Shown here: piece by piece, positions 38,477-59,313 of the stretch
Layout of the letters: each line of letters starts with the position of its first letter
Position numbering within the stretch: position 1 is the first letter of the stretch
Source: an uncultured Chloroflexia bacterium
GTDB taxonomy: Bacteria > Chloroflexota > Limnocylindria > Limnocylindrales > CSP1-4
Assembly: GCA_963788375.1 (NCBI GenBank)
Contig: CAWBGT010000001.1
Location: 7,467-71,466, forward strand
DNA length: 64,000 bases
Direction: 5' to 3'
Notes under the pieces: generated by a model
The model's input: only the letters and a program-made list of their open reading frames with translations
The model's database searches: none
Told to the model about the DNA's origin: nothing
Translations under genes and position numbers: made by a program

Positions 38477-38489
38477 TGGGGCCTCCTGC

Positions 38490-39377: not shown

Positions 39378-39644
39378 GGGTGGCACCGGGGTTCTCTGGG
39401 GCGGGCCCGGCAATCCGGGTCGCGGGGGAAGGACGAGGGAGGCGCCGCCGCCGCCCATTCGCGGGACCCGATCGGGAGGCCCGGTGCGTGACCGGGCGGG
39501 GCCTCGGGGTCGGGGAACGCTCGAGCGCGGACGTCGCGGGGCGTGCCTGGGATGGGCGGCGTTAGCGCCGCCGTGGACACGCGCAGGAGAACCCGAAGGA
39601 CGCCATGGCTCAACGATGCCGCTGATGGGGCCGCGCGTCAACCG

Positions 39645-42495: not shown

Positions 42496-42605
42496 GGCGG
42501 CGAGACTAGCGTGCCGTGATGGCCGCCGTTGCCGTTTCGCGTCGCCGTCCTCCCGGCGTCCCCGTGGTTCCCGCTCACGGTCGGGACCACGTATGCTCCG
42601 GGCAC

Positions 42606-45619: not shown

Positions 45620-45684
45620 TCGATCCCCACCGGGGCGTCGCCGGTCCATTTGACGTGCCGGTGGCGTCCCCGGATGCTCGTCCC

Positions 45685-46431
45685 ATGTCACGCATCCTCG
45701 TCGTGGACGACGAGCCCCACATCCTCGAGGTCGTCCGGGCCTATCTCGCCCGGGACGGCCACGACGTGCTCACGACGGCTGACGGGACAACCGCCCTCGA
45801 GCTTGCCCTGGGAGCGTCGCCCGACCTGGTGGTCCTGGACGTCATGCTGCCCGGCCGGTCCGGCTTCGACGTCCTGCGCGAGCTCCGCCGCTCGGGGAGC
45901 GCCGTGCCGGTGATCCTGCTCACGGCCCGGGACGACGTGATCGATCGGGTGGCCGGCCTCGAGATCGGGGCCGACGACTACGTCACCAAGCCATTCGAGC
46001 CGCGCGAGCTCGTCGCACGCGTCAGCGCGGTCCTGCGGCGGACCCAGGCGGTCGGCGACGCAAGCTCAGGCTCTGCGGCCGCGGGAGACCGCGCCGCCAC
46101 CCCGGCCGCACCCGCGTGGGACCCTCCGAAGGTCACGACCTGGTTCGACCTCGAGATCGATCCTGCCGCCCGCGACGTCCGGCGGGACGCCGCCGCGTTG
46201 CCACTCACCCGCGCCGAGTTCGATCTGCTCCTCGCGTTCGCCGGGCGCCCGGGCGTCGCCCTCACCCGCGAACAGCTCGGCGAGCACGTCTTCGGCGAGG
46301 CGTTCGACGCCTTCGACCGGACGATCGACAGCCACGTCAAGAACCTCCGCCACAAGCTGGGCAGCCGGCCGGGCGGCGAGGCCTACATCGAGACGGTCCG
46401 CGGTGTTGGCTATCGCGGAGCTCGGCCGTGA
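45685..46431 (+). CDS. OmpR-family response regulator
   Basis: Receiver ILVVDDEP and VVLDVMLPGRSG; winged-helix C-terminus TVRGVGYR. Confidence 0.9.
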   Translation: MSRILVVDDEPHILEVVRAYLARDGHDVLTTADGTTALELALGASPDLVVLDVMLPGRSGFDVLRELRRSGSAVPVILLTARDDVIDRVAGLEIGADDYVTKPFEPRELVARVSAVLRRTQAVGDASSGSAAAGDRAATPAAPAWDPPKVTTWFDLEIDPAARDVRRDAAALPLTRAEFDLLLAFAGRPGVALTREQLGEHVFGEAFDAFDRTIDSHVKNLRHKLGSRPGGEAYIETVRGVGYRGARP

Positions 46432-47573
46432 GCCTGCGGGCGCGCCTGGCGTTCGTGATGGCACTCGTGGCGTTGCTGACCGCGGCGGCGGTTGCCGTCG
46501 CAGCCCCGACCATCGTTGGCCGGGGGTTTGCCGCCGCGCTCGGTGATGACTCCGCCATCCGCCCAGGCGGTCCGGGCCCCGGCGGCGGCATGGGCAACGG
46601 GGCTGGCGCGGGAGCAGGCCTGGGCCAGGGCGTCATGCACTGGCAACAGGTCCAGCAGGACACGATCGTCACCCTGATCGCGGTCGCGGTTCTCGCGGCC
46701 GTGGTGGCCTCGCTCGTGGGCCTGTTCCTGGCCACGCGCACGGTGCGGCCGCTCGGACGGCTCGAGGCGGCTGCCGCGGCCGTGGCCAGGGGCGATCTCG
46801 AAGCCAGGTCAGGGTTGGCGGACCGGACCGACGAGATCGGGTCACTGGCGCGCTCGTTCGACGGGATGGCGGCGGGCCTCCAGGCGACAGAGGTCTCGCG
46901 CCGCCGCTTCTTCGCCGACGCAGCCCACGAGCTCAAGACCCCGATCGCCGTCATCGACGCCACGACGTCGGCGGTCATCGATCGCGTGTACACGCACGAC
47001 GACCGTCACCTCGAGACCATCAGGGAGCAGGCGCGGCTCCTCGGCCGCATCGTCGACGATCTGCGCACCGTGTCCCTGGCCGAGGCCGGGTCGCTGCCGT
47101 TGCGGATCGAGGCCGTCCCGCTGGCACCAGTGCTGGATGCGGTAGCCCGCGGCGCGGCGGCGCGGTCGTCACCTGGGGGACCGCGCGTCGAGGCCATCGA
47201 CCCTGGCGCGCTCGCTGTCCGCGCCGACTCCGACCGGTTGCGCCAGGTCCTCAACGCGTTGACCGACAACGCCCTGCGCCACGCCGCGGCCGGCGGATGG
47301 GTGCGGATCTCGGCGACCGGCGTGCCGCCGGCCCCGCCAGGCCAGGTCCGGATCACCGTCGTCGACTCCGGCCCCGGGATCGCCCCCAACGACCTGCCGC
47401 ATGTCTTCGATCGCTTCTACCAGGCCGACCCATCCCGCGACCGATCGACCGGGACGAGCGGTCTCGGCCTCGCGATCGTGCGCGCGATCGTCGAGGCGCT
47501 CCACGGTTCGGTGACGGCTGCCAACGAACCCGGGGCCGGGGCCCGATTCGACGTGGATCTGCCCTCAGCCTGA
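46428..47573 (+). CDS. sensor histidine kinase (HAMP + HisKA + HATPase_c)
   Basis: GTG start overlapping the response-regulator stop (GTGA). Two TM segments, H-box FFADAAHELKTPIA, and N/G boxes DNALRHA and DSGPGI...GLGLAIV. Confidence 0.85.
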   Translation: MSLRARLAFVMALVALLTAAAVAVAAPTIVGRGFAAALGDDSAIRPGGPGPGGGMGNGAGAGAGLGQGVMHWQQVQQDTIVTLIAVAVLAAVVASLVGLFLATRTVRPLGRLEAAAAAVARGDLEARSGLADRTDEIGSLARSFDGMAAGLQATEVSRRRFFADAAHELKTPIAVIDATTSAVIDRVYTHDDRHLETIREQARLLGRIVDDLRTVSLAEAGSLPLRIEAVPLAPVLDAVARGAAARSSPGGPRVEAIDPGALAVRADSDRLRQVLNALTDNALRHAAAGGWVRISATGVPPAPPGQVRITVVDSGPGIAPNDLPHVFDRFYQADPSRDRSTGTSGLGLAIVRAIVEALHGSVTAANEPGAGARFDVDLPSA

Positions 47574-47775
47574 CGGGTCATCGGGCGCCGCGCCGGCCGT
47601 TCGGCCTCCCCGCGGGCACACCCGGCCAGGTCCCCGCCGCGCCGCCCCCGACGCCCCGTTGCCCACGGTTCCTCGTGCCTGCGTTCACGTATCGCCTGCC
47701 CCGGCGCCGAGTGGCCCCCGCCCGGCGCGACGCGCCCGCCGACGGCCCGGGCCGCCCGTCCCGTGACGCTGTGAC

Positions 47776-47832
47776 CAACGGCTCACACCTTATATATGTA
47801 GATAGCATATAGATAGGCAGGACATCTACTTC
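47776..47832. promoter_or_regulatory. AT-rich imperfect palindrome upstream of arsR (candidate operator/promoter)
   Basis: The segment ccttatatatgtagatagcatatagataggcag is strongly AT-rich in a genome of about 72 percent GC. Half-sites TATATGTAGATA and TATAGATAGG; lies 20-70 bp upstream of the GTG start. Confidence 0.3.
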
Positions 47833-47850
47833 CACGCAGCAGGAGGCGAC

Positions 47851-48234
47851 GTGTACGACCCCGTTGGTGAGATCGATCTGATCCAGATCGGCCTCATCCG
47901 GGCGCTCGCCGGGACGCACCGCCTGCGGATCGTCCACCTCCTGGGCCGCGGATCCCTCGAGGTGCGCGAGCTCGCCCGCGAGCTCGACCTTCCCCAGGCC
48001 ACGGTCTCCCAGAACCTGGCTGCCATGCGGGCGGCAGGTCTCGTGGATGCGACGCGAGAGGGCCGCGCGGTCCGCTACCGCCTCGCCGATCCGGAGATTC
48101 TCGCCGCCTGCGACCTCATGCGGAACGTGATCGTCCGCCGCCTTTCAGCGCTCGGCAACCTCGCCGCCGCAGCCGGTGACGGGCAGCCGGCGATCTCCAG
48201 GAACCAACTTCCGGCACAGGTGACCAATCGATGA
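47851..48234 (+). CDS. ArsR/SmtB-family transcriptional regulator
   Basis: GTG start with AGGAGG RBS. HTH segment LRIVHLLGRGSLEVRELARELDLPQATVSQNLAAMRAAGLV. Confidence 0.8.
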   Translation: MYDPVGEIDLIQIGLIRALAGTHRLRIVHLLGRGSLEVRELARELDLPQATVSQNLAAMRAAGLVDATREGRAVRYRLADPEILAACDLMRNVIVRRLSALGNLAAAAGDGQPAISRNQLPAQVTNR

Positions 48235-48638
48235 GCGACAGCCTCAATCTCGTCATGTTCTCCGGCACGGCCGACAAGCTGCACGCAGCGGCGACGCTGG
48301 CCGCCGGGGCGGCCGCGATGGACCGGCCGGTGAACGTCCTGCTCCAGTACTGGGCGCTGGACGCGTTCCGGTCTGATCGGCTGGACGTGAACCACGGCCT
48401 CGCCTGGGACGCCATGGCCGACGGCGCGAGCCGCCCGGTCAAGGGCACGGCGGCCATTCCCTGGCTGGACACCTTCCGGATGGCCAAGGAGCTCGGATCG
48501 GTCTCGATCCTGGCCTGCTCCGGGTCGCTGGATGTCCTGGGCATCGACGTCACCGCCCTCGATCCGATCGTCGATTCGTCGGGCGGGATCGCCGTCTTCC
48601 TGCTGGCCGCCGAAGACGGCCAGCTCGTCTTCATCTAG
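48231..48638 (+). CDS. DsrE/DsrF-like sulfur-relay family protein (lacks obvious active-site Cys context)
   Basis: ATGA overlap with arsR. 135 aa with a DsrE-like fold; single Cys in LACSGSLD. Confidence 0.6.
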   Translation: MSDSLNLVMFSGTADKLHAAATLAAGAAAMDRPVNVLLQYWALDAFRSDRLDVNHGLAWDAMADGASRPVKGTAAIPWLDTFRMAKELGSVSILACSGSLDVLGIDVTALDPIVDSSGGIAVFLLAAEDGQLVFI

Positions 48639-48666
48639 CCGCCTCAAGGAGGGCACGGAGAACCCG

Positions 48667-49035
48667 ATGGCCGATCACGAGAAGCTCGTATTCATGGTGA
48701 CGCACGGGCCCGACCATCCCGAGCACGCCACCCTTCCCTTCGTGATGGCCGCCGCCGCGCTGGCATCGGATGTCGCCGTGACGATGGGCTTTCAGGCCGA
48801 TGCCGTGAGGCTCATGACGACCGGGGTGGCCGAAACGGTCGCCGCACCCGGCTTCCCGCCCCTGGCCAAGCTCGTCGCCGACGTCCGCGAGCTGGGCGGC
48901 CTGCTCCTCGTCTGCAACCCGTGCCTCAAGAGTCGGGACATCGCGCCCGACGACCTCGTCGCCGGTGCCGAGGTGGTCGCCGCAGGCCGCTTCGTCGCCG
49001 AGATCACGTCCGCCACCAACTCTCTCGTGTACTAG
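48667..49035 (+). CDS. DsrE-family sulfurtransferase-like protein
   Basis: AAGGAGG RBS. VFMVTHGPDHPEHATLPFVMAAAA and LLVCNPCLKSR, with Cys in the position of the DsrE sulfur-carrier cysteine. Confidence 0.7.
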   Translation: MADHEKLVFMVTHGPDHPEHATLPFVMAAAALASDVAVTMGFQADAVRLMTTGVAETVAAPGFPPLAKLVADVRELGGLLLVCNPCLKSRDIAPDDLVAGAEVVAAGRFVAEITSATNSLVY

Positions 49036-49047
49036 GAGACCGCTGAA

Positions 49048-49308
49048 ATGACCGCAACCGTTGCCGAGCTCGAGGCCATCGAGGCCGCCGAGATCATCGA
49101 TGCCCGCGGCGCAGCCTGCCCGGGCCCGCTGCTCGAGGCCAAGAAGGGCATGTCCGGGGTCCCCGTGGGCTCCGTGATCGAGATCTGGTCCACCGACCCG
49201 GGCACCAAGAGCGACATCTCGGCCTGGTCCGGCAAGGTCGGCCACGACTTCATGGGCACGCTCGAGGCCGACGGCTACGACCGCGTGTTCGTCACCCGCC
49301 GCAAGTAG
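49048..49308 (+). CDS. tusA: TusA-like sulfur carrier protein
   Basis: IDARGAACPGPLLEAKKGM carries the CPxP motif of the TusA/SirA family; 86 aa. Confidence 0.8.
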   Translation: MTATVAELEAIEAAEIIDARGAACPGPLLEAKKGMSGVPVGSVIEIWSTDPGTKSDISAWSGKVGHDFMGTLEADGYDRVFVTRRK

Positions 49309-49386
49309 CACCCGATCGCTGATGTCGTCTCGACCCGCTTCAACCGGCGTCGCGGCGACACCCCGGCCTGCAGGAGCACCGCGTCC

Positions 49387-49836
49387 ATGACCGCACCCAT
49401 CGCGACCGAACCGCATGCACCGGGCGAATCCTTCGTCCCGCGGATCCTCGTGTTCTCCACGAACAACATCTCCGATCCCGGCATCGACCTCGCCGGCAGC
49501 GCCCACATGCACTACTCGCCGGGCGTGAACGTCATCGGCCTGCCGTGCACAAGCGGCATCCGGCCGTCATGGATCCTGCACGCGCTGGAGTCCGGCTTCG
49601 ACGGGGTGTTCGTGGCATCCGACGGGGACGAGTGCGCCTACCTGCCAGACTGCGCCAAGCGCTCCAGCCGGATCATGGCGGAGGCGCAGAAGCAGCTCAA
49701 GGAGAAGGGCCTCACGGCCAACCGGCTGCGCATGGCCGCGATCTGCTCGGTCTGCTCGGAGCCGTTCACCAAGCATGTCCAGGGGTTCTCGGAAGCGTTG
49801 CGCGCGATGGGCCCGGCGAAGGCGGAATCACGATGA
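49387..49836 (+). CDS. MvhD/FlpD-like hydrogenase iron-sulfur (2Fe-2S) subunit homolog
   Basis: ILVFSTNN...VIGLPCTSGIRPSWILHALESGFDGVFVASDGDECAYLPDC matches the MvhD family. ATGA overlap with the next gene. Confidence 0.7.
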   Translation: MTAPIATEPHAPGESFVPRILVFSTNNISDPGIDLAGSAHMHYSPGVNVIGLPCTSGIRPSWILHALESGFDGVFVASDGDECAYLPDCAKRSSRIMAEAQKQLKEKGLTANRLRMAAICSVCSEPFTKHVQGFSEALRAMGPAKAESR

Positions 49837-52601
49837 CCGACAGCTGCGCCACCCGCGACGAGGCCCCGGCCGCCACGGACTACGACGTCCTGGTCGTGGG
49901 TTCGGGCATCGGCGGCATGGAGTCCGCCCTCAAGCTCGGCGACATGGGCTACAAGGTCCTGCTGGTCGAGAAGGAGGCCAGTGTCGGCGGCAAGATGATC
50001 CTGCTGTCGAAGGTCTTCCCGACGCTCGACTGCGCGTCCTGCATCTCGACGCCCAAGATGGCGTCGACGATCCACCACCCCAACATCACGGCCATGACCT
50101 ACGGCCGGGTGGACCAGATCCGGACCGCGGCCGACGGCACCTTCAAGGCCAAGGTCACCCAGAAGGCCCGATTCGTCGACATCGACTCCTGCACCGGCTG
50201 CCAGAAGTGCGAGACCGCGTGCACGGTCGCGGTGCCGGACCAGTTCAACGCGGATCTGGTGGCCCGCCGGGCGGCCCACATCACGTTCCCCCAGGCCGTG
50301 CCCAAGAAGGCGGTCATCGACCGCGCCGGAAGCTCGCCCTGCTCGTTCGCATGCCCGGCCGGGATCCAGGCCCACGGCTACGTCAGCCTGATCCGCAGCG
50401 GCCTCGACGAGGAGGCCTACCGGCTGGTGCTGGACGCCACCCCGTTCGTGGGCACGCTCGGGCGCGCCTGCTACGCCCCGTGCGAGGTCGACTGCACCCG
50501 CGGCTCGCTGGAGGGCACGCTCCCGATCCGGCGCCTCAAGCGCTACGCCTCCGACGTGCACGACGCCAGCGGCGCGGACAACGGCATCGAGCGGCCGCAG
50601 GCCAACGGCCGGCGTGTTGCCATCGTGGGCTCCGGGCCCACCGGGCTCACCGCCGCCTGGCAGCTGGGCCGCCTGGGCTACGCGGTCAAGGTGTTCGAGG
50701 CGGCCCCGGTCGCCGGCGGCTTCCTGCGCCTGGGCATCCCGTCCTACCGGCTGCCCGAGGCCGTGGTGGAGCGCGACATCGAGAACGTCACCGCGCTCGG
50801 CGTGGAGATCGTGACCGGCTCGCCGGTCGCCGACCCCGCGGCGCTCAAGGACAACGGCTTCGACGCCGTGCTGGTCGCCATCGGCACCCATCGCTCGACC
50901 TCCCTGGGCGTCCCGGGCGAGGACCGGCTGGGCGTCCTGGGCGGAACCGACTTCCTTCGCCGGGTGAAGCTCGATGAGGCACCCGCGCTCGCAGGCAAGC
51001 GCGTGATCGTCGTGGGTGGCGGCAACGTGGCGATGGACGCCGCGCGCACGGCCCGGCGCCTGGGCGCGGAGTCGGTCACCGTGGCCTACCGCCGGAGCCG
51101 CGACGAGATGCCGGCCCACCACGTCGAAGCCGCGGATGCGGAGAGGGAGGGCGTCGCCTTCCGGCTCCTGGTCGCCCCGGCAGAGGTCCTGGGCGATGCG
51201 AACGGGGCGGTCTCCGGCCTGCGCTGCCAGGAGATGCGCCTGGGCGCGCCGGACGCGTCCGGCCGCCGCTCGGCCGAGCCCGTCCCGGGCTCCGACACGA
51301 CCATCCCGGCCGACGTGATCATTGCCGCTATCGGCATGCGCCCGGACACGAGCGCGTTCGGCGACCGGGTCGCGGTCCATCCCAACGGCCGGCTGGTCAG
51401 CGACAAGGCCTCCTGCCAGACCGCGACGCCGCACGTGTTCGCCGCCGGCGACGCGGTGCACGGACCCACCGACATCACGCGGGCGGTGGGGGAGGGCCGC
51501 AAGGCCGCCCACCAGATCGACGCCTGGCTCTCGGGCCGCGAGTTCGATGACTGGGACACGCGCCTCCCCGTCGTGGACAAGGAGCAGGTGCTGGCCCGCC
51601 AGAAGGCATACACGGTCTCGGCGCCCACGCCCGAGGGCTCCGAACTCGTGGCGGCCCCCGCGGACTTCCGGGAGGTGGAGGCCGGGCTCACGCAGCAGGA
51701 GGCCCGCCGGGCCGCCGGCCGGTGCATCGACTGCGCGGTGTGCTCCGAGTGCAACGAGTGCGTCTCGGCCTGTCCCGTCGATGGCTGCATCGACCTGCGG
51801 GCCCGCGACGAGGAGAGGGAGATCAAGGTCGGCGCCGTCGTGGTCTCGACCGGCTTCAAGCTGTTCCCCGCGGACCTCAAGCCCGAGTACGGGTACGGCC
51901 TGTACAAGAACGTCATCACCGGCATGCAGATGGACCGGCTCCTCGCTCCGACGCGGCCGTTCAACACGATCCTGCGCCCGGGCGACGGCAAGGTCCCCGA
52001 GCGGATCGCGTACATCCTGTGCACCGGGTCCCGCGACGAGACCGTGGGCAATCCCCTCTGCTCCCGGTTCTGCTGCATGTACTCCATCAAGCAGAACCAG
52101 CTCCTGATGGGCGCCCTGCCCCTGGCCGACATCACCGTCCACTACATGGACATCCGCGCGCCGGGCAAACGCTACGACGAGTTCTACGAGCAGGCGAAGG
52201 GCATGGGCGCGACCTACGTCAAGGGCCGGGTTGCGGACGTGACCGAGACGCCCGACGGGGACCTGATCCTCAAGTACGAGGACATCGAGAACGGTGGCGC
52301 CATCACCGAGGCCGAGTACGACCTGGTGGTGCTGGCGGTGGGCGTGCTGCCCAATCGCGACGCCGAGCGGCTGTTCGAGGTGGGCGAGCTCGCCCTGGAT
52401 GAATGGCAGTATGTGGCCGAGCCGGAGGAAGACGTGAACCCGGGCCAGACGAACATCCCCGGGGTCTACGTGGCCGGTGCCGCGTCGGGTGCCAAGGACA
52501 TCGCGGACTCCATCCTCCACGCAGGCGCCGCCGTGGCCCAGGTCGCGGCCCACCTCGAGCGGACGAAGCCCGTGCCGCAGATCGAGCTGGTGCCGGCATG
52601 A
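49833..52601 (+). CDS. HdrA-like flavoprotein with inserted GltD/NfnB-like NAD(P)H-binding Fe-S domain (HdrL-type fusion)
   Basis: 922 aa. N-terminal FAD motif DVLVVGSGIGGMESA; 4Fe-4S motif CTGCQKCETAC; inserted GltD-like block with CSFACPAGIQ, ACYAPCEVDC, VAIVGSGPTGLTAA and VIVVGGGNVAMD; ferredoxin CIDCAVCSECNECVSACP; HdrA motifs CTGSRDE...CSRFCCMYS and GVYVAGAASG. Confidence 0.8.
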   Translation: MTDSCATRDEAPAATDYDVLVVGSGIGGMESALKLGDMGYKVLLVEKEASVGGKMILLSKVFPTLDCASCISTPKMASTIHHPNITAMTYGRVDQIRTAADGTFKAKVTQKARFVDIDSCTGCQKCETACTVAVPDQFNADLVARRAAHITFPQAVPKKAVIDRAGSSPCSFACPAGIQAHGYVSLIRSGLDEEAYRLVLDATPFVGTLGRACYAPCEVDCTRGSLEGTLPIRRLKRYASDVHDASGADNGIERPQANGRRVAIVGSGPTGLTAAWQLGRLGYAVKVFEAAPVAGGFLRLGIPSYRLPEAVVERDIENVTALGVEIVTGSPVADPAALKDNGFDAVLVAIGTHRSTSLGVPGEDRLGVLGGTDFLRRVKLDEAPALAGKRVIVVGGGNVAMDAARTARRLGAESVTVAYRRSRDEMPAHHVEAADAEREGVAFRLLVAPAEVLGDANGAVSGLRCQEMRLGAPDASGRRSAEPVPGSDTTIPADVIIAAIGMRPDTSAFGDRVAVHPNGRLVSDKASCQTATPHVFAAGDAVHGPTDITRAVGEGRKAAHQIDAWLSGREFDDWDTRLPVVDKEQVLARQKAYTVSAPTPEGSELVAAPADFREVEAGLTQQEARRAAGRCIDCAVCSECNECVSACPVDGCIDLRARDEEREIKVGAVVVSTGFKLFPADLKPEYGYGLYKNVITGMQMDRLLAPTRPFNTILRPGDGKVPERIAYILCTGSRDETVGNPLCSRFCCMYSIKQNQLLMGALPLADITVHYMDIRAPGKRYDEFYEQAKGMGATYVKGRVADVTETPDGDLILKYEDIENGGAITEAEYDLVVLAVGVLPNRDAERLFEVGELALDEWQYVAEPEEDVNPGQTNIPGVYVAGAASGAKDIADSILHAGAAVAQVAAHLERTKPVPQIELVPA

Positions 52602-54376
52602 GCGAGCAGACCCAGGACCTTGCCATGGGCCAGCCAGCCCCCGAGGCCGAGTCCGGCCGCCGGATCGGCGTGTATGTCTGCCACTGCGGCGGCAACATCT
52701 CCGACTACGTCGACGTCGAGAAGGTCATCGACGACATCAAGGACAACGGTGACGTCGTGGTCGCCAAGACCGCGATGTTCACCTGCTCGGACGCCACCCA
52801 GTCCGAGATCGTCGCGGACATCCAGGCCAACGAGCTCGATGGCCTCGTGGTGGCCTCCTGCTCGCCCAAGCTGCACACCTACACCTTCCGGGGCGTGGCC
52901 CAGCGGGCCGGCCTCAACCCGTACGAGTACACCCAGGTCAACATCCGGGAGCAGTGCTCCTGGGTCCACACGGACGACCACGACGGAGCGACCGCCAAGG
53001 CCACCGCGCTCGTGGAGGCCGGCATCGGACGGACGCGCCACACGGTGCCCCTGGAGCCGATGGTCGTGGAGACCCTCCCCCACACGCTCATCATCGGCGG
53101 CGGGATCGCCGGTCTCCGGGCGGCCGTCGGGCTGGCCGACATCGGCCTCAAGGTGACGCTCGTCGAGCGTGAGCTGGAGCTGGGTGGACGCGTCGGCCGG
53201 CTGGGGGCGATGTACCCCCACAACCGGAAGGGCTCGGAGCTGATCGCCCACCTGGTGGCCGAGGTGCGCAAGCGCCCGGCGATCACGGTCCTCACGGGCG
53301 CGGAGCTGGTCGCCAAGGCCGGCAGCTTTGGCAACTACCGGGTGAGCCTCCAGATCGGCGGGGAGGGTGCCGGCACCATTGAGGTGGCCGTGGGCTCCAT
53401 CGTCGTGGCCACGGGCTTCGACGACTACCGCCCCGAGGAGGGCGAGCTGGGCTACGGCATCGAAGGTGTCGTCACCCTGACCGAGTTCAAGGAGGTCGTG
53501 GATGGCTCAACCGACGGGCTTGCCTGGAACGGCCGGCCGGTTCGCAGCGTGGCCTACGTGTACTGCGTCGGCAGCCGCAACACGGCCGGATGCGCCAACG
53601 CGTACTGCTCGCGGTACTGCTGCGCCGCCACCGTCCAGACGGCCGTCGAGGTCTCGGGCCTCGACCCGTCCATCCGCCAGTTCCACCTGTACCGGGACAT
53701 GCGGACGTACGGCAAGTTCGAGCCGCTGTACACGGAGGCGCGCAAGTCCGGCTCGGTCTTCCTCAAGTTCGACAACGAGGAGCCGCCTGCGGTCGCGAAG
53801 GGCCCCGACGGAACGCTGACGGTCACCGTCCGCGACGTGCTCACCGAGCGCATCGAGATGGCGATCCCGGTGGACCTCGTGGTCCTGGTCACGGCCATGG
53901 TCCCGCGGGCCAACCAGGGCCTCGTGGACGTCCTCAAGCTCCCGGCCGGCAGCGATGGGTTCTTCAACGAGATCCATCCCAAGCTGCGACCCGTGGAGAC
54001 GGTGGTGGATGGGGTGCTGATCGCCGGCGCCTGCCAGGGTCCCAAGACGTCGGGCGAGAGCGTCATGTCCGGCCTGGCCGCCGTGACCCAGAGCGCCGCG
54101 GTCCTCAAGAAGGGTTACACGGAGCTCGACCCGCTGGTCGCGATCGTGGAGCCGGAGGCATGCACCGCCTGCGGCGACTGCCTCACAGCGTGCCCCTATG
54201 ACGCGATCTCCATGGCCGAGGAGGCTGACCGGCACTTCGCGGTCATCAGCCCCACCGGCTGCAAGGGCTGCGGCGGCTGCGTGCCGATCTGTCCGGAGAA
54301 CGCGATCGACCTGCTCGGCTATACCGACGCCCAGATCACGTCGATGATCGAAAGCCTCGTGGAGGTTCCTGTCTGA
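52598..54376 (+). CDS. hdrA: heterodisulfide reductase subunit A-like flavoprotein
   Basis: 592 aa. N-terminal cluster IGVYVCHCGGNI; FAD motif LIIGGGIAGLRAA; VYCVGSRN...CSRYCC; C-terminal 2x[4Fe-4S] CTACGDCLTACP and CKGCGGCVPICP. ATGA overlap upstream, TGATG overlap downstream. Confidence 0.85.
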   Translation: MSEQTQDLAMGQPAPEAESGRRIGVYVCHCGGNISDYVDVEKVIDDIKDNGDVVVAKTAMFTCSDATQSEIVADIQANELDGLVVASCSPKLHTYTFRGVAQRAGLNPYEYTQVNIREQCSWVHTDDHDGATAKATALVEAGIGRTRHTVPLEPMVVETLPHTLIIGGGIAGLRAAVGLADIGLKVTLVERELELGGRVGRLGAMYPHNRKGSELIAHLVAEVRKRPAITVLTGAELVAKAGSFGNYRVSLQIGGEGAGTIEVAVGSIVVATGFDDYRPEEGELGYGIEGVVTLTEFKEVVDGSTDGLAWNGRPVRSVAYVYCVGSRNTAGCANAYCSRYCCAATVQTAVEVSGLDPSIRQFHLYRDMRTYGKFEPLYTEARKSGSVFLKFDNEEPPAVAKGPDGTLTVTVRDVLTERIEMAIPVDLVVLVTAMVPRANQGLVDVLKLPAGSDGFFNEIHPKLRPVETVVDGVLIAGACQGPKTSGESVMSGLAAVTQSAAVLKKGYTELDPLVAIVEPEACTACGDCLTACPYDAISMAEEADRHFAVISPTGCKGCGGCVPICPENAIDLLGYTDAQITSMIESLVEVPV

Positions 54377-54621
54377 TGCCTGACCTGTCCCGGGACCCGC
54401 GCGAGGTCATGCGGGAGGAGCCCGTGATGCGGCCCCGCATCCTCGCCGCCCTCCAGGCCGGTCCCCTCACCGTTCCCGAGATTGCCACGGCCGTTGGCTC
54501 GCCCACTCACGAGGTCCTGTTCTGGGTCATGGGCATGCGCCGCTACGGGTGGCTCGAGGAGATCAAGGGCAACGCCCCCGACGGCTACTTCCAGTACCAG
54601 CCCACCGGGCGGGAGTCCTGA
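54376..54621 (+). CDS. small winged-helix-like protein embedded in the hdr operon
   Basis: 81-aa ORF overlapping both neighbours by 1 bp; ILAALQAGPLTVPEIATAVGSPTHEVLFWVMGMRRYGWLEE is wHTH-like. Confidence 0.4.
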   Translation: MPDLSRDPREVMREEPVMRPRILAALQAGPLTVPEIATAVGSPTHEVLFWVMGMRRYGWLEEIKGNAPDGYFQYQPTGRES

Positions 54622-55844
54622 TGACCGCCACCACCGCTCCTGCCGACGCCGCGCCGGCCGTCGCCACGCCCGCCCGCCTGGACCTGGGCCTCTACCCGGA
54701 TCTCCAGCGGTTTGGCGCCACCGACATCAGCGCCTGCTTCTCGTGCGGCACCTGCTCCGCGACCTGCCCCATGTCCCAGACCGACGGAACCTTCCCCAGG
54801 CGGATCATCCGCTATGCCCAGCTGGGCATGAAGGACGCGCTGCTCGGGTCCAAGGAGCTGTGGGCGTGCTACCAGTGTGGTGAGTGTGCCGAGACGTGTC
54901 CCACCCAGGCCGATCCGTCCGAGTTCATGGCGGCGACCCGACGCTATGCCATCGCCTCCTACGACCGGACGCGGCTGGCCCGGACCCTCTACACGAACCC
55001 GGTCATGGCGACCGTGATCGCCGTCCTCGTGGCCGTGCTGTTCGCCGCCTTCATGTACTCGGCCCGCGGCCCGATGAGCACAGAGACCCTGGCGATCTTC
55101 GAGTGGATCCCGTCGGAGCTGATCCACGACACCGGGATCGTCGTGATGATCGTGGTCGTGCTCGCGGGCGTGCTGGGCATCGCGACCATGGCCCGGGATG
55201 TCGGACGCCGTGAGGGCGAGAGTCCGCGGAGCGTGTTCGGGTCCAGGGCCGCACTCGGCCGGACCGGGCGTGCATTGTGGAGCGCCATCGGCCGCGAGTC
55301 GCTGGGCCAGGTCCGGTTCCGCGAGGAGTGCGAGGCGGACGACGTCGCCATGGCCGTCCCCTGGTACCGCCGCCGCTGGCTGGTCCACGCGCTCGTCGTC
55401 TGGGGCTTCCTCGGCCTGCTGGCGGCAACCGGGCTGGACTACGGCCTGGCGCTGCTCGGCATCAAGGAGACCGGGGCGCCGGTGCCGATCTGGTACCCGG
55501 TCAGGCTGCTGGGCACCGTGGCCGGGGCCGTCCTCGTCTATGGGGCCACCGTCCTGATCATCGACCGCCGCAACGCCGCCAGCCGCAGCGTCAGGACCTC
55601 GACGACGGCCGACTGGATGCTCCTGGGCCTGCTGTGGGTGACGGCCGTCACCGGTTTCGCCATCGAGCTCGCGCTGTACCTGCCGAGCGCCCCCGCCTGG
55701 GGCTACTGGCTGTTCCTCGTCCACGTCGCCGTCGCCATGGAGCTCGTGCTCCTCGCGCCGTTCACCAAGCTCGCCCACGCGGTCTACCGGCCGGTGGCGA
55801 TGTTCTTCGTCGCTCTATCGCGCCAGCCAACGGAAGGAGCCTGA
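54621..55844 (+). CDS. HdrC-like 2x[4Fe-4S] ferredoxin domain fused to a NarI/HdrE-like polytopic membrane (putative b-type cytochrome) domain
   Basis: CFSCGTCSATCP and CYQCGECAETCP about 45 aa apart, then 5-6 TM helices containing conserved His (WLVHALVVWGF, LFLVHVAVAMEL, KLAHAVY). Confidence 0.7.
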   Translation: MTATTAPADAAPAVATPARLDLGLYPDLQRFGATDISACFSCGTCSATCPMSQTDGTFPRRIIRYAQLGMKDALLGSKELWACYQCGECAETCPTQADPSEFMAATRRYAIASYDRTRLARTLYTNPVMATVIAVLVAVLFAAFMYSARGPMSTETLAIFEWIPSELIHDTGIVVMIVVVLAGVLGIATMARDVGRREGESPRSVFGSRAALGRTGRALWSAIGRESLGQVRFREECEADDVAMAVPWYRRRWLVHALVVWGFLGLLAATGLDYGLALLGIKETGAPVPIWYPVRLLGTVAGAVLVYGATVLIIDRRNAASRSVRTSTTADWMLLGLLWVTAVTGFAIELALYLPSAPAWGYWLFLVHVAVAMELVLLAPFTKLAHAVYRPVAMFFVALSRQPTEGA

Positions 55845-55847
55845 GCC

Positions 55848-56339
55848 ATGACCAGCCCCACGCTGCCGCAGACGGCCCATGTCCACCACGAGCGCCTGCT
55901 CGAGCGGGTGAACCGCATCCCCGACATCGCGGATGCGCTGCTCACGACCTCGCCCGACGTTGCCCAGGCCAGCCTCCGCGACCTGCGCGGGTTCCTCGAG
56001 GGGACGCTGCTCCCGCACATGGAGGCCGCCGAGCGGGCCCTCTACCCGGAGCTGGAGCGCATGTTCCAGAACCGGCATTCCATGGCACCCATGCGCCGCG
56101 AGCACGCCCGCATCCGGGAGCTGATCACGGAGTTCGGTGCGCTCGTGGACGAGGGTGAGGGTCACGTGACCCTGGCCCGCACCCTCTCGATCCGGCGCGT
56201 GCTGTTCCACCTGTACGCGCTGCTCAAGGTGCACCTGGCCGAGGAGGATGCCTACCTCCGGATCATCGAGCACGGCGTCACCGACGACGTCGCGGACGCG
56301 GTCAAGGCGGCGCTCGAGCACCCGGTCGCGGGCGTCTAG
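55848..56339 (+). CDS. hemerythrin-like HHE cation-binding domain protein
   Basis: H/E residues spaced in a four-helix pattern (HHERL...HMEAAERALYPEL...MRREHARI...LKVHLAEED). Confidence 0.65.
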   Translation: MTSPTLPQTAHVHHERLLERVNRIPDIADALLTTSPDVAQASLRDLRGFLEGTLLPHMEAAERALYPELERMFQNRHSMAPMRREHARIRELITEFGALVDEGEGHVTLARTLSIRRVLFHLYALLKVHLAEEDAYLRIIEHGVTDDVADAVKAALEHPVAGV

Positions 56340-56354
56340 GGCTAGCATGGGCGG

Positions 56355-56879
56355 GTGAACATCCAGCACCCGGACCCGGAGACCGTCCCCGTCTCGTTGC
56401 GGGCGACCGGCGACGTCCACCATGCCCGGCTGATGCCCCACGTGGACCGGCTGCTGACGCTCGCCGAGATGGTCGGGCGGGTGGAATGCGCGGCCCTCCA
56501 TGCGCTCTACAACGACGAGTACGCATTCATCGCGGGCCAGCTGATCCCGCACCTGGAGGTGGTCGAAGCCACGCTCTATGACCGTCTCGAGACGCTCATG
56601 GGCCCCCGCCACACCATGGCCCCCATGCGCGAGGAGCACGACACCGTGCGCCGGCTCGTGGCTGAGCTGGGCACGTACCAGGTCCACGAGAACGAGTGCA
56701 CGTGGAACGAGATGGAGGGTCTCGCCCTCCGGCGATCGCTCTACCGGCTGCACGCCCTGCTCAAGGTCCACCTTGCGGAGGAGGAGCAGTACCTGGCGGT
56801 CCTGGACCGGAGCCTGACGGAGGACGAGAAGGAAGGGCTGGCGCGCGGCCTCGAACACGCCATGGCAGAGGGCGAGTAG
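56355..56879 (+). CDS. hemerythrin-like HHE cation-binding domain protein (paralog of 55848..56339)
   Basis: Aligns with the preceding gene: HLEVVEATLYDRLE...MREEHDTVRRL...LLKVHLAEEEQYL. Confidence 0.65.
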   Translation: MNIQHPDPETVPVSLRATGDVHHARLMPHVDRLLTLAEMVGRVECAALHALYNDEYAFIAGQLIPHLEVVEATLYDRLETLMGPRHTMAPMREEHDTVRRLVAELGTYQVHENECTWNEMEGLALRRSLYRLHALLKVHLAEEEQYLAVLDRSLTEDEKEGLARGLEHAMAEGE

Positions 56880-56902
56880 CCTCCCCAACGGAGGATTTCC
56901 GC

Positions 56903-57193
56903 ATGGCCCGCTACCGCGTCCTCGCATGGCGCGAGATCCCCACCCAGGTCCAGGCCACCGACGAGGCCGGCACCACCGCCAAGCGGACCATGGCCCGCTG
57001 GTTCATGCAGGAGATCAGCCGGATCACCATGCGCGAGGGCCTGGCTGGGACAGACGACTACCTTGAGGAGTTCGAGTGGTCGGCGTGGTCCGATCGCGAG
57101 GGCGGTGCCGACGACGTGGCCGACGCGGTTGTCGCGGAGCTCTCCGCCCGGTTCGGTCGACGCGTGGATGGCCACACCCTGCGCGAGGCCTGA
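56903..57193 (+). CDS. hypothetical small protein, last gene of hdr-like operon
   Basis: ATG at 56903 with GGAGGA RBS; 96 aa; no known motif. Confidence 0.4.
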   Translation: MARYRVLAWREIPTQVQATDEAGTTAKRTMARWFMQEISRITMREGLAGTDDYLEEFEWSAWSDREGGADDVADAVVAELSARFGRRVDGHTLREA

Positions 57194-57219
57194 GGCGGCC
57201 CGTGAACCTCGCCGCTCCG

Positions 57220-57555
57220 TCAGCCGGCTTCGCGGAGCAGGGTGAGGATCATGACGAGCGGCGTGGTCGCGCGGATCGCATGGCGCATGCCGGGCGGCAT
57301 GGCGATCCAGGCGCCCGCAGCGGCCGACATCGCCTCTTCGCCAAGCACCAGGTCGGCCGTTCCCTCCAGGATCTGGATCTGGGCGGCGAAGGCCGAAGTG
57401 TGCTCGCTCAGCTCCTCGCCCGCGTCGAAGGCGAAGATCACCAGCGACACCCGTTCGTCCTCGTACAGAGTTCGGCTGAGGATCCCGCCGGACGGGATCT
57501 GGACCTCGGATCGGAGATCCCCGACGTACCCGTAGTCAGTCACGTGACGCTCCAT
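57220..57555 (-). CDS. cupin-domain protein
   Basis: 111 aa. EHTSAFAAQIQILEGTADLVLGEE...AGAWIAMPPGMRHAIRA is cupin-like. Confidence 0.6.
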   Translation of the reverse strand: MERHVTDYGYVGDLRSEVQIPSGGILSRTLYEDERVSLVIFAFDAGEELSEHTSAFAAQIQILEGTADLVLGEEAMSAAAGAWIAMPPGMRHAIRATTPLVMILTLLREAG

Positions 57556-57716
57556 TCGACGCGGTGGTGGTGGGTTGGTCCCGGGTTCCGGCCCCTGCTG
57601 GCGGGTTCTCGCTTCCGGTGCCGCCGATCACACTCGCAATCCGGCGTCTCGTACAGCACAATGGGGGCTCACATCGGAGGGAAGTCTTCTCCGTGTCGAG
57701 GGTTAGGGTGAGGTAG

Positions 57717-58076
57717 ATGAACTTTACTGAATGGATCATGGCGATGATCGTCTTCTTCTTCTGGGTGATGGCGATCTGGATCTTCATCTCCATCTTCATG
57801 GACATCTTCCGCCGGAACGACATGAAGGGCGGCATGAAGGCGCTGTGGATCCTGGTGATCTTTATCATCCCGTTCCTGGGCTGCCTGATCTACATCATCG
57901 CCCGGCCCAAGGTCACGGCCCAGGACGTCCAGATGATGACGCAGGCCGAGGCCGCCGCCGGTGCGGCGTCGCAGGTGTCCACCGCGGACGAGCTCGCGAA
58001 GCTCGGCCAGCTGAAGGACTCCGGCGCCATCACCGTCCCCGAGTACGAGGCCCTCAAGGCCAAGCTGATGGCCTGA
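57717..58076 (+). CDS. PLDc_N (cardiolipin synthase N-terminal-like) membrane domain + SHOCT domain protein
   Basis: Two TM helices (IMAMIVFFFWVMAIWIFISIF, LWILVIFIIPFLGCLIYIIARP), then DELAKLGQLKDSGAITVPEYEALKAKL, which is a SHOCT motif. Lower GC than the surroundings. Confidence 0.75.
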   Translation: MNFTEWIMAMIVFFFWVMAIWIFISIFMDIFRRNDMKGGMKALWILVIFIIPFLGCLIYIIARPKVTAQDVQMMTQAEAAAGAASQVSTADELAKLGQLKDSGAITVPEYEALKAKLMA

Positions 58077-58104
58077 TCGCGAGCCCATCGCGATCCGCGA
58101 GGCC

Positions 58105-58140
58105 GGTCCCCGACGTGGGGGCCGGCCTTCTTCGTTGGGC
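58105..58140. terminator. putative intrinsic terminator hairpin followed by T-rich tract
   Basis: aggccggtcccc-gacgtg-ggggccggcct followed by tcttcgtt; lies between convergent genes. Confidence 0.4.
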
Positions 58141-58160
58141 CCAGTGCGTCCCGGTACGGG

Positions 58161-59066
58161 TCAGGGGTGGCGCTGTCCTGGCACGCGCCCCTCGGCCGCC
58201 GCGACCAGCTGGGCCAGGTGCGATGCCTCGTGGCGGGCGAAGTACGCCGCCTGGGACAGCACCGTCACGCGACCCCACTCCGGGTGGCAACCAGCTCGGC
58301 CCCAGTCCGCGTCGTCGAGGGCGGCGAGGCGATCGACGGCGGCATGCCGGAGCTCCCGGATCCTGTGGGCGAGGGCCGTGGCCGCCTCTCCGGTCGCCGT
58401 CGTCCCCTCGTCGGACGCGGGTGTGTCGGCCCAGACGGCCGCCGCAGCGAGATCGGGCTCCGTCTCGGTGAGGAGGCGGTGGATCCGCATGGCCAGGAGC
58501 TCCTCGGTGAACAGCAAGTGCTCCAGGGTCTGGGTGGCGGACCAGGCGCCGGCGACCGGCGCACGGCGGAGCTCGGCATCCGCACGATCCGCGAGTGCCG
58601 CGTCGAGGTGACGCGGACCGGCGGCGAGGGCGGCGAGGATCGCGCCACGGTCGGCAGGCTCCAGGTACCAGACGGGCAGCTCCTCGTGGAAGGAGATCGC
58701 CGGAGCCTCGCACGTCGGGCAGGCGGGTGGCACGGCATCGCCGACGAAGACGTCGCCGCACACACGACAGACGCGTGCCCGCGGAGCGTCGTCGAGCGAG
58801 ATCGTCCGGCCCGCCCTGACGGCCGGCCCAACCTCCCGCAGGTAGGGGATGGTCGCGGGCGGGAGGTCTCCACCAAGATCCTCGACGAGCGACTCGACGG
58901 CCGCAGCCGCCGCTTCGCCGCCGGCCGGTGACTCCTCCTCCGCGAAGCGGACCAGCTCGCGCTGGAGCGCGACCCGTACCAGCTTCGCGCCGTTGTAGGC
59001 GCCCTCGCGCTCCAGTCCCCGGGCCACCGCGGCCAGCCGGCCGATCCGTTCCAGCCGTGCGTCCAT
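58161..59066 (-). CDS. rubredoxin-like zinc-ribbon + DinB_2 (DinB/YfiT-like) domain protein
   Basis: Internal start MDARLERIG at codon 133 of ORF 58161..59462, with AGGAGG RBS. CRVCGDVF...CPTCEAP zinc ribbon. The C-terminal half has the DinB-like four-helix pattern with His (WSATQTLEHLLFTEELLAMRIHRLL...ARHEASHLAQL). Confidence 0.55.
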   Translation of the reverse strand: MDARLERIGRLAAVARGLEREGAYNGAKLVRVALQRELVRFAEEESPAGGEAAAAAVESLVEDLGGDLPPATIPYLREVGPAVRAGRTISLDDAPRARVCRVCGDVFVGDAVPPACPTCEAPAISFHEELPVWYLEPADRGAILAALAAGPRHLDAALADRADAELRRAPVAGAWSATQTLEHLLFTEELLAMRIHRLLTETEPDLAAAAVWADTPASDEGTTATGEAATALAHRIRELRHAAVDRLAALDDADWGRAGCHPEWGRVTVLSQAAYFARHEASHLAQLVAAAEGRVPGQRHP

Positions 59067-59313
59067 CCCATGCCTCCTGCCCGCACCTGATCGCCTCGCC
59101 GGCGCCCGCCCTGTGGTTGTTCCGGTCACCGCCCAGTGTGCGCCACCGGCAGGCCTCCCACCCGCCGCGCCGCGAGTTGCCGGGCCGATCCTCGCCACGG
59201 TTGGGCCGGCCTGCAGGAGAACGCCTGGTTCACGGCTTGTGATTCGCGACGCTCGCGCCATGACGGCAGCGCGGAGTAATGTTGAGGCTGCGTCCGGCCC
59301 GGGAGGATCCGCC

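Follow-up and report, generated by a model that had tools for sequence, protein, structure and literature searches.

We analyzed a 64,000-nucleotide stretch of DNA from an uncultured Chloroflexia bacterium (contig CAWBGT010000001.1; this whole stretch is referred to as the window) and focused on positions 47851-57193, which carry a putative operon for a Qmo-like membrane complex and a set of sulfur carriers. The region held 12 open reading frames (ORFs), all on the + strand, and both their coordinates and their junctions matched those given in a preliminary description of the locus. Overlaps of 4 nt (ATGA) joined arsR to dsrE2 at 48231, mvhD to hdrL at 49833 and hdrL to hdrA at 52598, and 1-nt overlaps of the TGATG type joined hdrA to g8 at 54376 and g8 to qmoC at 54621. 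The remaining intergenic gaps were 3-28 nt, apart from the widest one, of 78 nt, between tusA and mvhD. With the sequence at ~70% G+C, the G+C content at third codon positions was 0.86-0.95 in the called frames, which supported coding in these frames. The products were scanned against Pfam and NCBIfam, a check that the preliminary description had proposed, and each family that it had named was backed: ArsR (HTH_5), DrsE_2, DsrE, TusA, FlpD/MvhD, HdrA with a GltD/NfnB-like insert, HdrA, Fer4_8 with Nitrate_red_gam, two hemerythrins (the second one borderline) and PF13769. We refer to the DsrE2B-like protein as g2, the DsrE3-like protein as g3, MvhD as g5, HdrL as g6, HdrA as g7, the winged-helix protein as g8, the QmoC-like protein as g9 and the first hemerythrin as g10.

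A search of one genome per GTDB species with the membrane subunit returned 359 stretches, and the counts for close loci given below rest on the best 80. Among these 80 (65-93% identity), 78 were labelled Chloroflexota and, where a lower rank was given, Limnocylindria or Limnocylindrales; the other two came from one Steroidobacteraceae bin and one Gemmatimonadaceae bin. Sources of the close relatives included Danish soils, the Rifle aquifer (RBG_16_72_14) and permafrost. For 18.5 of 21.2 kb, the window was collinear with the chromosome of a Chloroflexota metagenome-assembled genome (MAG; OY970218.1), with a nucleotide identity of 84% that rose to 89% over the hdr core. The host had been taken for a high-GC actinobacterium, but this collinearity and the best matches placed it in a Chloroflexota MAG lineage (Ca. 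Limnocylindria). A tblastn search with the 12 products against the 80 species-level genomes gave the order arsR-dsrE2-(dsrE)-tusA-mvhD-hdrL-hdrA-g8-qmoC-hemerythrin, in one orientation, in essentially every full-length locus. The synteny search suggested at the outset thus returned an arrangement that is conserved far beyond chance, but as a unit of ten genes (arsR to the first hemerythrin) and not of twelve, as the last two genes vary. Predicted cofactor ligands were invariant or nearly so across the loci, and the QmoC-like subunit had >1,600 close homologue clusters in public data. When all flanking ORFs in the 78 loci were clustered, no additional recurrent partner was found beyond PadR, a two-component system and occasional MerR-ArsC, ArsP-like and HemQ-like genes. 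The Limnocylindria loci L048, L049 and L062 had an additional DrsE_2 gene and a second tusA, and the locus of the Gemmatimonadaceae bin (L080) had its DrsE_2 gene placed 3' of qmoC, with a sigma-54 activator. Cytochrome bd oxidase genes lay directly upstream in L048. At L001:4754-7972 (same contig as L004), mvhD and hdrL were called as a single 1072-aa fusion, which may be genuine, as in QmoB and HdrA2, or may be due to a long-read or assembly indel.

The membrane subunit, encoded by the qmoC-like gene (54621-55844, + strand), was a 407-aa protein that matched the qmoC model NF038018 from position 2 to 360 of 360 (E 2.2e-62). Its score of 211.6 bits is below the equivalog cut-off of 300, and thus short of equivalog similarity to canonical (type I) QmoC. 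The preliminary description had called this protein an HdrC-like ferredoxin fused to a membrane domain. Both domains were indeed found, but its identity is that of a full-length QmoC homologue; QmoC has been published as an HdrC-HdrE fusion, and g9 matches that description. The N-terminus carried an HdrC-like 2x[4Fe-4S] domain with two invariant CxxCxxCxxxCP motifs, and HdrC structures in the PDB matched residues 26-112. In addition to the Fer4_8 and Nitrate_red_gam matches, six hydrophobic segments were detected. His169, His256, His368 and His386, together with the cluster Cys residues, were invariant in all 80 loci and in all distant relatives, and the four His residues are candidate ligands of two hemes b. 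The six-helix domain is probably a di-heme b, quinone-interacting domain. A look-up gave no exact record of the QmoC-like protein of the window, and an AlphaFold2 (AF2) model of it, built from a 25-sequence alignment of 74-92% identical sequences, reached a predicted confidence (pLDDT) of only 55, too poor for a fold search.

Two HdrA paralogues preceded the membrane subunit. The first, hdrL (49833-52601, + strand), encoded an HdrL-type subunit of 922 aa that matched PRK12771 at 486 bits over residues 143-665 and HdrA2 at 447 bits. It joined the thioredoxin-reductase-like core of HdrA, which binds flavin adenine dinucleotide (FAD), to the HdrA inserted ferredoxin domain, and nested within this inserted domain, at residues ~178-631, was an NfnB/GltD-like NAD(P)H-FAD-2[4Fe-4S] module containing dinucleotide-binding and cluster motifs, two of each. 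PDB matches were of the StnC/NfnB type at E 1e-105 to 1e-93 (1e-105 at residues 167-643) and to HdrA at 1e-97. Residues 15-156 aligned to HdrA 142-282, a stretch that takes in the first half of the inserted ferredoxin domain and also the FPTxDC(S/A)xC motif; one solved HdrA has selenocysteine as the second Cys of this motif. Residues ~630-910 resumed the HdrA core, and HdrL was without both the N-terminal domain and the C-terminal ferredoxin domain of HdrA. All its Cys ligands were conserved among the loci. The second paralogue, hdrA (52598-54376, + strand; 592 aa), matched HdrA in the PDB (8rvu, 5odc) at E 1e-108 in two stretches that skipped HdrA residues ~237-315. It carried an N-terminal 4-Cys domain, the FAD core with CxGxR(D/N)-x6-8-CSxxCC and a C-terminal 2x[4Fe-4S] ferredoxin domain, and it was without the inserted ferredoxin domain. 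In terms of HdrA residues, HdrL covered ~142-567 and g7 covered 1-236 and 316-650. These alignments showed the two proteins as predicted complementary halves of an HdrA-type dimer. Between them, every accessory domain known from the homodimer of methanogen HdrA occurs exactly once, and such a split is, as judged by domain content, the logic of a QmoA/QmoB-like heterodimer.

The gene upstream of hdrL, mvhD (49387-49836, + strand), encoded an MvhD-like iron-sulfur subunit of 149 aa (PF02662, E 5.5e-28) with an atypical Cys pattern consisting of C54, C83, C89, C120 and C123. Between hdrA and qmoC, and translationally coupled to both, lay g8 (54376-54621, + strand), which encoded a winged-helix protein of 81 aa with no Cys. 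Its AF2 model had a pLDDT of 88, and Foldseek matched it to generic winged helix-turn-helix folds only (E ~1e-3). Homologues of g8 formed 696 clusters; among the 120 listed, all were 81 aa and all but one were without a Pfam match. We consider that g8 is probably a structural subunit of the complex.

The 5' part of the operon encoded the sulfur carriers. The DsrE2B-like carrier dsrE2 (48231-48638, + strand; 135 aa; PF13686, E 3.4e-10) had a full-length match to PDB 2QS7 (SSO1126, DsrE2B) at E 1.4e-14, and its Cys96 was conserved in 62 of 62 loci. The DsrE3-like protein encoded by dsrE (48667-49035, + strand; 122 aa; PF02635, E 1.6e-13) matched PDB 3MC3 (SSO1125, DsrE3A) at E 1.9e-5 and bore an invariant Cys83-x2-Cys86, a CxxC in place of the Cys-x7-Cys of DsrE3A. 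This gene was missing from about one quarter of the related loci, including the closest relative. The third carrier, TusA (49048-49308, + strand; 86 aa; PF01206, E 2.5e-17), had its active-site Cys24 in a CPGP motif, and this Cys was conserved in 68 of 68 loci. The DsrE2B/DsrE3A/TusA trio is the set that adjoins the sHdr genes in Sulfolobales.

We next considered the catalytic partners. A search for the CCG motif (C-x(n)-CC-x(n)-CxxC) found none in the six frames of the window and a single spurious Pro/Arg-rich match across 88 related loci (~1.6 Mb), and PF02754 matched no operon protein. A frameshifted or missed HdrB was rejected, since the genes abut or overlap and no frame has the CCG motif. 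Similarly, no apr, sat, dsr or lipoate-protein genes were found among the scanned proteins of the window, nor were any recurrent within 10 kb of the related loci. The absence of the CCG subunit HdrB/HdrD, the NAD(P)H-type GltD module in an HdrA paralogue, the quinone-type membrane anchor and the link to a TusA/DsrE relay of sHdr-type carriers had all been claimed for this operon before, and on these points the present searches agreed with the earlier claims.

To place the operon among more distant relatives, 1.84 billion representatives were searched, which gave 190 QmoC-like clusters at E<=1e-30; the full-length relatives had 30-53% identity, and six contexts were examined. TusA-linked operons were found in L084 (QmoC 53%; DsrE-TusA-MvhD-HdrA(444)-HdrA(624)-101 aa-QmoC-PadR-hemerythrin), L087 (QmoC 49%; ArsR-TusA-MvhD-HdrA(443)-HdrA(691)-99 aa-QmoC-DsrE), L083 (QmoC 46%; TusA-MvhD-HdrA(434)-HdrA(596)-101 aa-QmoC-DsrE-ArsR-DrsE_2) and L088 (QmoC 43%; TusA-MvhD-HdrA(452)-HdrA(675)-96 aa-QmoC). 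In each of them tusA adjoined mvhD, and the sulfur carriers stayed with the complex through changes in gene order and the divergence of QmoC to 43-53%. TusA was the best-conserved component of these loci, at 64-70% identity. Their short HdrA corresponded to residues 14-177 and 632-911 of g6, that is, to g6 minus the GltD/NfnB module, indicating that the module is a clade-specific insertion. Redox-stress genes encoding a glutaredoxin, AhpC, a CsoR-like regulator and a ferritin-like protein flanked L087.

The two other contexts were linked to hydrogenase. L085:3559-11779 (QmoC 39%) encoded the small and large subunits of an Mvh-type [NiFe] hydrogenase with MvhD, HdrA pieces, a g8 homologue and HycI, and L086:1964-9225 (QmoC 39%), from an Asgard (Ca. 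Kariarchaeaceae) MAG, encoded [NiFe] hydrogenase small and large subunits with MvhD and HdrA pieces. Neither had TusA or DsrE. They resemble hydrogenase-HdrA-QmoC complexes, in other words systems for H2:quinone electron transfer that may also have a ferredoxin branch. Since the Mvh-type hydrogenase replaces TusA/DsrE in these operons, the sulfur relay occupies the position of the electron-donating module. The g8 homologues of 93-101 aa stood at the equivalent position in the distant TusA-linked loci and in one hydrogenase-linked locus. The HdrA and QmoC ligands were identical in the two forms and MvhD alone differed. A C-terminal CxxC (C120/C123 in g5) was present in all TusA-linked MvhD proteins and absent from the hydrogenase-linked ones, while an N-terminal CxxC showed the opposite distribution (g5 compared with L083-L088). 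This change may be either a swap of [2Fe-2S] ligands or a new redox-active pair.

The operon began with arsR (47851-48234, + strand), whose GTG start opens a 127-aa regulator of the ArsR/SmtB family (HTH_5, E 6.6e-13; NF033788, 78.9 bits, above the cut-off). Upstream of it we identified a putative promoter/operator at 47771-47811 (+ strand), which combined a -35-like GTGACC (47771-47776) with the palindrome TATATG-N7-CATATA (47793-47811). The palindrome lay 40 nt upstream of arsR in an AT-rich island of a 72% G+C region and was unique in the window (1 match against 0.02 expected). The pattern ATATATG-N7-CATATA preceded arsR in most related loci, down to ~57% ArsR identity, and a -35-like GTGAC(C/A) ~16 nt upstream was conserved alongside it in most loci. 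The palindrome is probably the ArsR operator and probably overlaps the -10 region, as expected of an autoregulated repressor. A consensus scan found no sigma-70-like promoter and only two terminator-like sites, both at chance level and both within ORFs. The closest solved relative of ArsR was the persulfide sensor SqrR (E 2e-10). SqrR/BigR repressors have a conserved Cys pair that forms an intramolecular polysulfide bridge, whereas the ArsR of this operon is without that pair (C41/C107 in SqrR): C41 aligned with His29, and Cys87, conserved in 51 of 51 loci, was its single Cys.

The 78-nt gap between tusA and mvhD contained a GC-rich hairpin (49318-49367, + strand), with a minimum free energy of -27.5 kcal/mol for the gap. 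A strong hairpin was present at this gap in nearly all loci, although the sequences were unrelated. When the gap was compared with windows of equal length from its own locus, its folding energy ranked among the lowest 10% for 31 of the 65 loci; the longest stem had a median of 10 bp as compared to 7 bp. The z-scores against mononucleotide shuffles were weak (median -1.6) because of the GC-rich background, while the same-locus comparison indicated a clearer yet moderate enrichment. The hairpin had no T-tail, and no Rfam family matched within 47000-58500. It may act as an attenuator or a processing site, or stabilise the mRNA. It sits exactly at the boundary between the dsrE/tusA and hdr genes, where a transcript end would, according to the preliminary description, have spoken against its reading, and could set different mRNA levels for the carriers and the complex, which is not proof of two separate transcripts. 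Further regulatory genes were found nearby. A two-component system (OmpR-type response regulator and HAMP/HisKA kinase; 45505-47573) lay directly upstream of the operon and recurred there in ~10-16 loci. A PadR-family regulator was located ~5 kb upstream in the window (42510-43130); PadR was also found in 33 related loci, where it usually adjoined the hemerythrin 3' of qmoC (e.g. L069:11796-12401), and likewise in the distant L084, which suggests that PadR is a second regulatory input.

At the 3' end, the first hemerythrin (HHE di-iron type; 55848-56339, + strand; 163 aa; PF01814, E 3.6e-12) adjoined qmoC in most Limnocylindria loci. The second (56355-56879, + strand; 174 aa, GTG start) scored 25.0 bits against a PF01814 cut-off of 25.3 (E 2.8e-5) and clustered with the first by blastp; in most relatives it was on the opposite strand or displaced. 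A plausible role for the hemerythrins in an oxygen-exposed host would be protection, repair or sensing on behalf of the complex, which is rich in Fe-S clusters. The small last ORF was present as described before and matched PF13769 (E 4.4e-13), but its likely start is at 56903 (MARYRV...) and not at 56696, giving a 96-aa protein at 56903-57193 (+ strand). This gene was seen in 16 loci only and stands outside the conserved core.

The wider surroundings were mixed. Neighbours in the window included the two-component system, PadR, YbjN-like, methyltransferase, GMC oxidoreductase, cupin, ABC transporter and UvrD genes. About 9 kb upstream, on the - strand, overlapping genes for a pyridoxal-phosphate-dependent, cysteine-synthase-like protein and a hexapeptide-repeat, serine-acetyltransferase-like protein were found at 37562-39644; this cysK/cysE-like pair is possibly linked to sulfide supply or consumption. 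Downstream lay a PLDc_N/SHOCT membrane protein (57717-58076) with a strikingly low first-position G+C content, a DinB_2/rubredoxin-like protein on the - strand (58161-59462) and an ORF of ~1,300 aa (58999-63015) with a weak fn3 match only and an unusually high second-position G+C content (0.63). Fusions of a MerR helix-turn-helix to an ArsC-like domain and ArsP-like permeases with an FCSCS motif occurred within 10 kb of the operon in some relatives (e.g. L020, L023, L027, L029, L031, L040, L041 and L069). An arsenic-related function suggested by ArsR, MerR-ArsC and ArsP-like genes was dropped, as such genes were near only 8-9 of the 78 loci.

Taken together, we tentatively favour, at somewhat less than even confidence, a Qmo-type membrane complex that works with the sulfur relay and links carrier-bound sulfur, menaquinone and NAD(P)(H). 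The complex would consist of the MvhD-like subunit, HdrL, HdrA, the winged-helix subunit and QmoC and would be membrane-bound; the DsrE2B/DsrE3/TusA relay would cooperate with it, and the ArsR-family repressor would control the operon through the palindromic operator. By analogy with MvhADG-HdrABC and Qmo, QmoC in place of HdrC(B) would be the high-potential outlet to menaquinone. The inserted ferredoxin domain, which normally reduces free ferredoxin, would be the low-potential outlet, here wired to the NfnB-like FAD and NAD(P)+, and MvhD would be the inlet, served by hydrogenase in the sister operons and by TusA-delivered sulfur here. A bifurcating NAD(P)H/quinone/persulfide function, as put forward in the preliminary description, is a reasonable but tentative inference. 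HdrA-type and NfnB-type FAD modules were both present at the sequence level, and the literature cautions that homology is insufficient to infer bifurcation.

In the direction that we slightly prefer, as a possibility that we hold with some doubt, the complex would carry out the two-electron oxidation of carrier-associated reduced sulfur (e.g. sulfide + carrier thiol -> carrier persulfide) and the electrons would be bifurcated to menaquinone and NAD(P)+. The S0/HS- couple lies at approximately -270 mV. For the acceptors, PMC10734219 gives potentials of -320 mV for NADH and -74 mV for menaquinone. The mean acceptor potential from these values is approximately -197 mV. Since the sulfur couple is below this mean, sulfur oxidation with bifurcation to both acceptors is feasible. 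In the reverse direction, confurcation from NAD(P)H and menaquinol would reduce a persulfide or thiosulfonate on the carrier; this reaction is near isopotential, and we regard it as rather unlikely.

Several observations weigh against the sulfur-linked complex that we favour. No site for persulfide/thiol redox chemistry was found, HdrB, AprA, DsrAB and lipoate-binding proteins being absent from the window and the loci, and neither TusA nor DsrE has a metal centre. The MvhD-variant CxxC, Cys67/Cys70 of HdrL and the CxxC of DsrE3 are speculative candidates for the site of S-S chemistry, and a partner could also be encoded elsewhere in the genome, as the scans covered the window and the loci. The DsrE3-like gene cannot be essential, because it is missing from about a quarter of the loci. 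Because the GltD insert is missing from the distant TusA-linked operons, the ancestral function does not include NAD(P)(H). Moreover, co-localisation falls short of proving a shared reaction, the hairpin could mean that the carrier and complex halves are expressed differently, and it is only an assumption, drawn from the literature and the cytochrome bd operon beside one relative, that the host lives aerobically.

One alternative is that the complex has nothing to do with sulfur. It would then be an NAD(P)H:menaquinone oxidoreductase in which ferredoxin or flavodoxin either receives electrons by bifurcation or supplies them for confurcation, as an HdrA-based counterpart of FixABCX/EtfABCX, with TusA/DsrE merely co-regulated for Fe-S/cofactor assembly or persulfide buffering. 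The NfnB-like module, QmoC and the ferredoxin-type domains with MvhD would supply all three ports, membrane-associated NADH/quinone/ferredoxin bifurcation is established for Fix/EtfABCX, and no sulfur-active catalytic site was found in the window or the 88 loci. The distant operons, however, drop the NAD(P)H module and yet keep a linked TusA at 64-70% identity, and the carriers follow the complex through rearrangement and across phylum-level bins. In addition, TusA/DsrE and hydrogenase are mutually exclusive at one operon slot, a pattern more in keeping with a substrate module than with a maturation factor, and we therefore consider this alternative unlikely. Another alternative is a service complex of the canonical Qmo kind, which would pass electrons between the quinone pool and a sulfur enzyme encoded elsewhere (AprAB, DsrAB/DsrC, an HdrB-containing sHdr or a sulfite dehydrogenase) that is fed by TusA/DsrE. 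QmoABC itself contains no catalytic subunit; AprAB is its partner, and the qmo genes do not always lie beside aprBA. 'Type II' Qmo proteins, which resemble HdrA more closely, are reported both from organisms that have Apr/Dsr and from others that do not, and HdrL-mvhD adjoins dsrABC in Desulfobacterium autotrophicum. On the other hand, neither the window nor the 10-kb surroundings of the 88 loci contained apr, sat, dsr, CCG or lipoate-protein genes, and the invariant neighbours were sulfur carriers and regulators only. We also found no report of dissimilatory Apr/Dsr in Limnocylindria, though the literature searches were not aimed at this question, and we judge a service complex to be quite improbable.

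The regulator and the surrounding genes bear on a further explanation, namely a defence against reactive sulfur species, in which an ArsR-controlled, inducible and NAD(P)H-driven system would reduce persulfide or polysulfide or dispose of sulfane sulfur, with the quinone as an electron sink only and no energy conservation. It would agree with the kinship of the regulator to the persulfide sensor SqrR, with the redox-stress genes around L087 and with the hemerythrin and PadR genes that adjoin the operon, but the diagnostic Cys pair of SqrR was not conserved and the distant versions are without the NAD(P)H module. To our knowledge, the NAD(P)H persulfide reductases described so far each consist of one soluble flavoprotein. 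A complex of ~2,150 residues with three flavin sites, >10 predicted Fe-S clusters and a di-heme anchor would be disproportionate for detoxification, and a defence role thus appears very unlikely. The Qmo-type complex working with the sulfur relay may also be extended to a more general proposal, to which we assign a low probability: the TusA-linked complexes would form an unrecognised class of sulfur:quinone oxidoreductases, in which the relay, acting with an MvhD that has gained a C-terminal CxxC, replaces hydrogenase and the HdrA flavin splits electrons to menaquinone and, in Limnocylindria, NAD(P)+. If this were true, flavin-based bifurcation would occur in widespread, oxygen-exposed soil bacteria, NAD(P)H would be obtained from reduced sulfur without reverse electron flow, and the complex would be a natural, hard-wired case of the long-hypothesised 'third partner' of Qmo.

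The operon matters for how Qmo and HdrA proteins couple quinone chemistry to low-potential carriers, as this family has a third partner built in (the NAD(P)H module here and hydrogenase in the sister operons), which makes the coupling testable with defined substrates. Furthermore, TusA/DsrE are tied here to an Hdr-type complex without the sole known Hdr catalytic subunit, which points to an unknown electron route to or from carrier-bound sulfur. Limnocylindria are uncultured and abundant in soil and freshwater, and the function is therefore likely to matter for soil sulfur and redox cycling. Full-text literature searches returned no paper on the operon; the review of HdrA modules by Appel et al. 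(2021) and that of TusA by Tanabe et al. (2019) were outside what these searches returned, and a prior mention is possible.

Among known systems, FixABCX/EtfABCX is a functional analogue only: it also couples NADH, quinone and a low-potential carrier by membrane-associated bifurcation, and Fix is the only such bifurcating system known from an aerobe, but it is built from electron-transfer flavoprotein (ETF) and ETF-quinone oxidoreductase, families unrelated to HdrA and QmoC, and has no sulfur-carrier link. In comparison with MvhADG-HdrABC of methanogens, matches at E 1e-97 to 1e-108 identified the HdrA-dimer domains, the MvhD module and the pair of HdrC-type clusters, and the sister operons L085 and L086 retain an Mvh-type hydrogenase. 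In contrast to that system, HdrB and heterodisulfide chemistry are lacking, QmoC replaces the HdrBC outlet, the functions of HdrA are split over two paralogues, and the MvhAG hydrogenase is absent from the window, which has sulfur carriers instead. The HdrL-MvhD of D. autotrophicum likewise has a fusion of HdrA and a glutamate-synthase-type NAD(P)H module beside mvhD (in our operon mvhD overlaps the start of hdrL by 4 nt), and one locus of that organism has tandem hdrL/hdrA; in the Moorella MetFV-HdrABC-MvhD, HdrA binds two FAD and oxidises NADH. However, these systems are soluble, belong to strict anaerobes and are linked to dsrABC, formate dehydrogenase, HdrBC or MetFV, and none has been described with QmoC or TusA/DsrE. 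With sHdr (sHdrC1B1A-H-C2B2, DsrE3/TusA, LbpA) the operon shares DsrE2B-, DsrE3A- and TusA-type carriers adjoining Hdr-like genes, and ArsR-type regulation of sHdr clusters is known from sHdrR/SoxR of Hyphomicrobium. It differs from sHdr in having no CCG HdrB, no free-standing HdrC and, among the scanned window proteins and recurrent neighbours, no lipoate-binding LbpA or lipoate-assembly families. Its HdrA proteins are long and multi-cluster in contrast to the short sHdrA, and it has a QmoC anchor and an NAD(P)H module.

The operon was also compared with QmoABC of sulfate reducers and some sulfur oxidisers, which likewise has two HdrA-related flavoproteins, an MvhD-type module, a QmoC made of an HdrC-like and an HdrE/NarI-like membrane domain, and no HdrB. 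The statement of the preliminary description that the operon does not match described Hdr architectures could therefore not be upheld, since the Qmo class lacks HdrB by definition and HdrA/GltD fusions beside mvhD have already been named HdrL. The operon also differs from QmoABC. QmoB carries a C-terminal MvhD-like domain, whereas MvhD is encoded here by a separate upstream gene with an altered Cys pattern; of the HdrA paralogues, one contains the NfnB/GltD insert, and the other resembles HdrA and has cluster domains at both termini; and both paralogues were best matched by archaeal HdrA/HdrA2, with no qmoA or qmoB among the 25 best NCBIfam families listed. There is also an extra winged-helix subunit, and in the window and the locus neighbours a linkage to TusA/DsrE takes the place of aprBA/sat. 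Qmo has been suggested to use a third redox partner, with hydrogenase and NADH dehydrogenase among the candidates, and to work by confurcation, which has been proposed since 2012 and not demonstrated. 'Type II' Qmo proteins have no function assigned in the literature. Each protein family of the operon, the Qmo architecture class, the HdrL-MvhD pairs and type II Qmo are thus already known. On the other hand, the invariant coupling of a Qmo-like complex to a DsrE2B/DsrE3/TusA relay appears to be new, as do the winged-helix subunit, the MvhD variant, the combination of an NfnB-type insertion with a QmoC anchor, and the prevalence of such operons in Limnocylindria.

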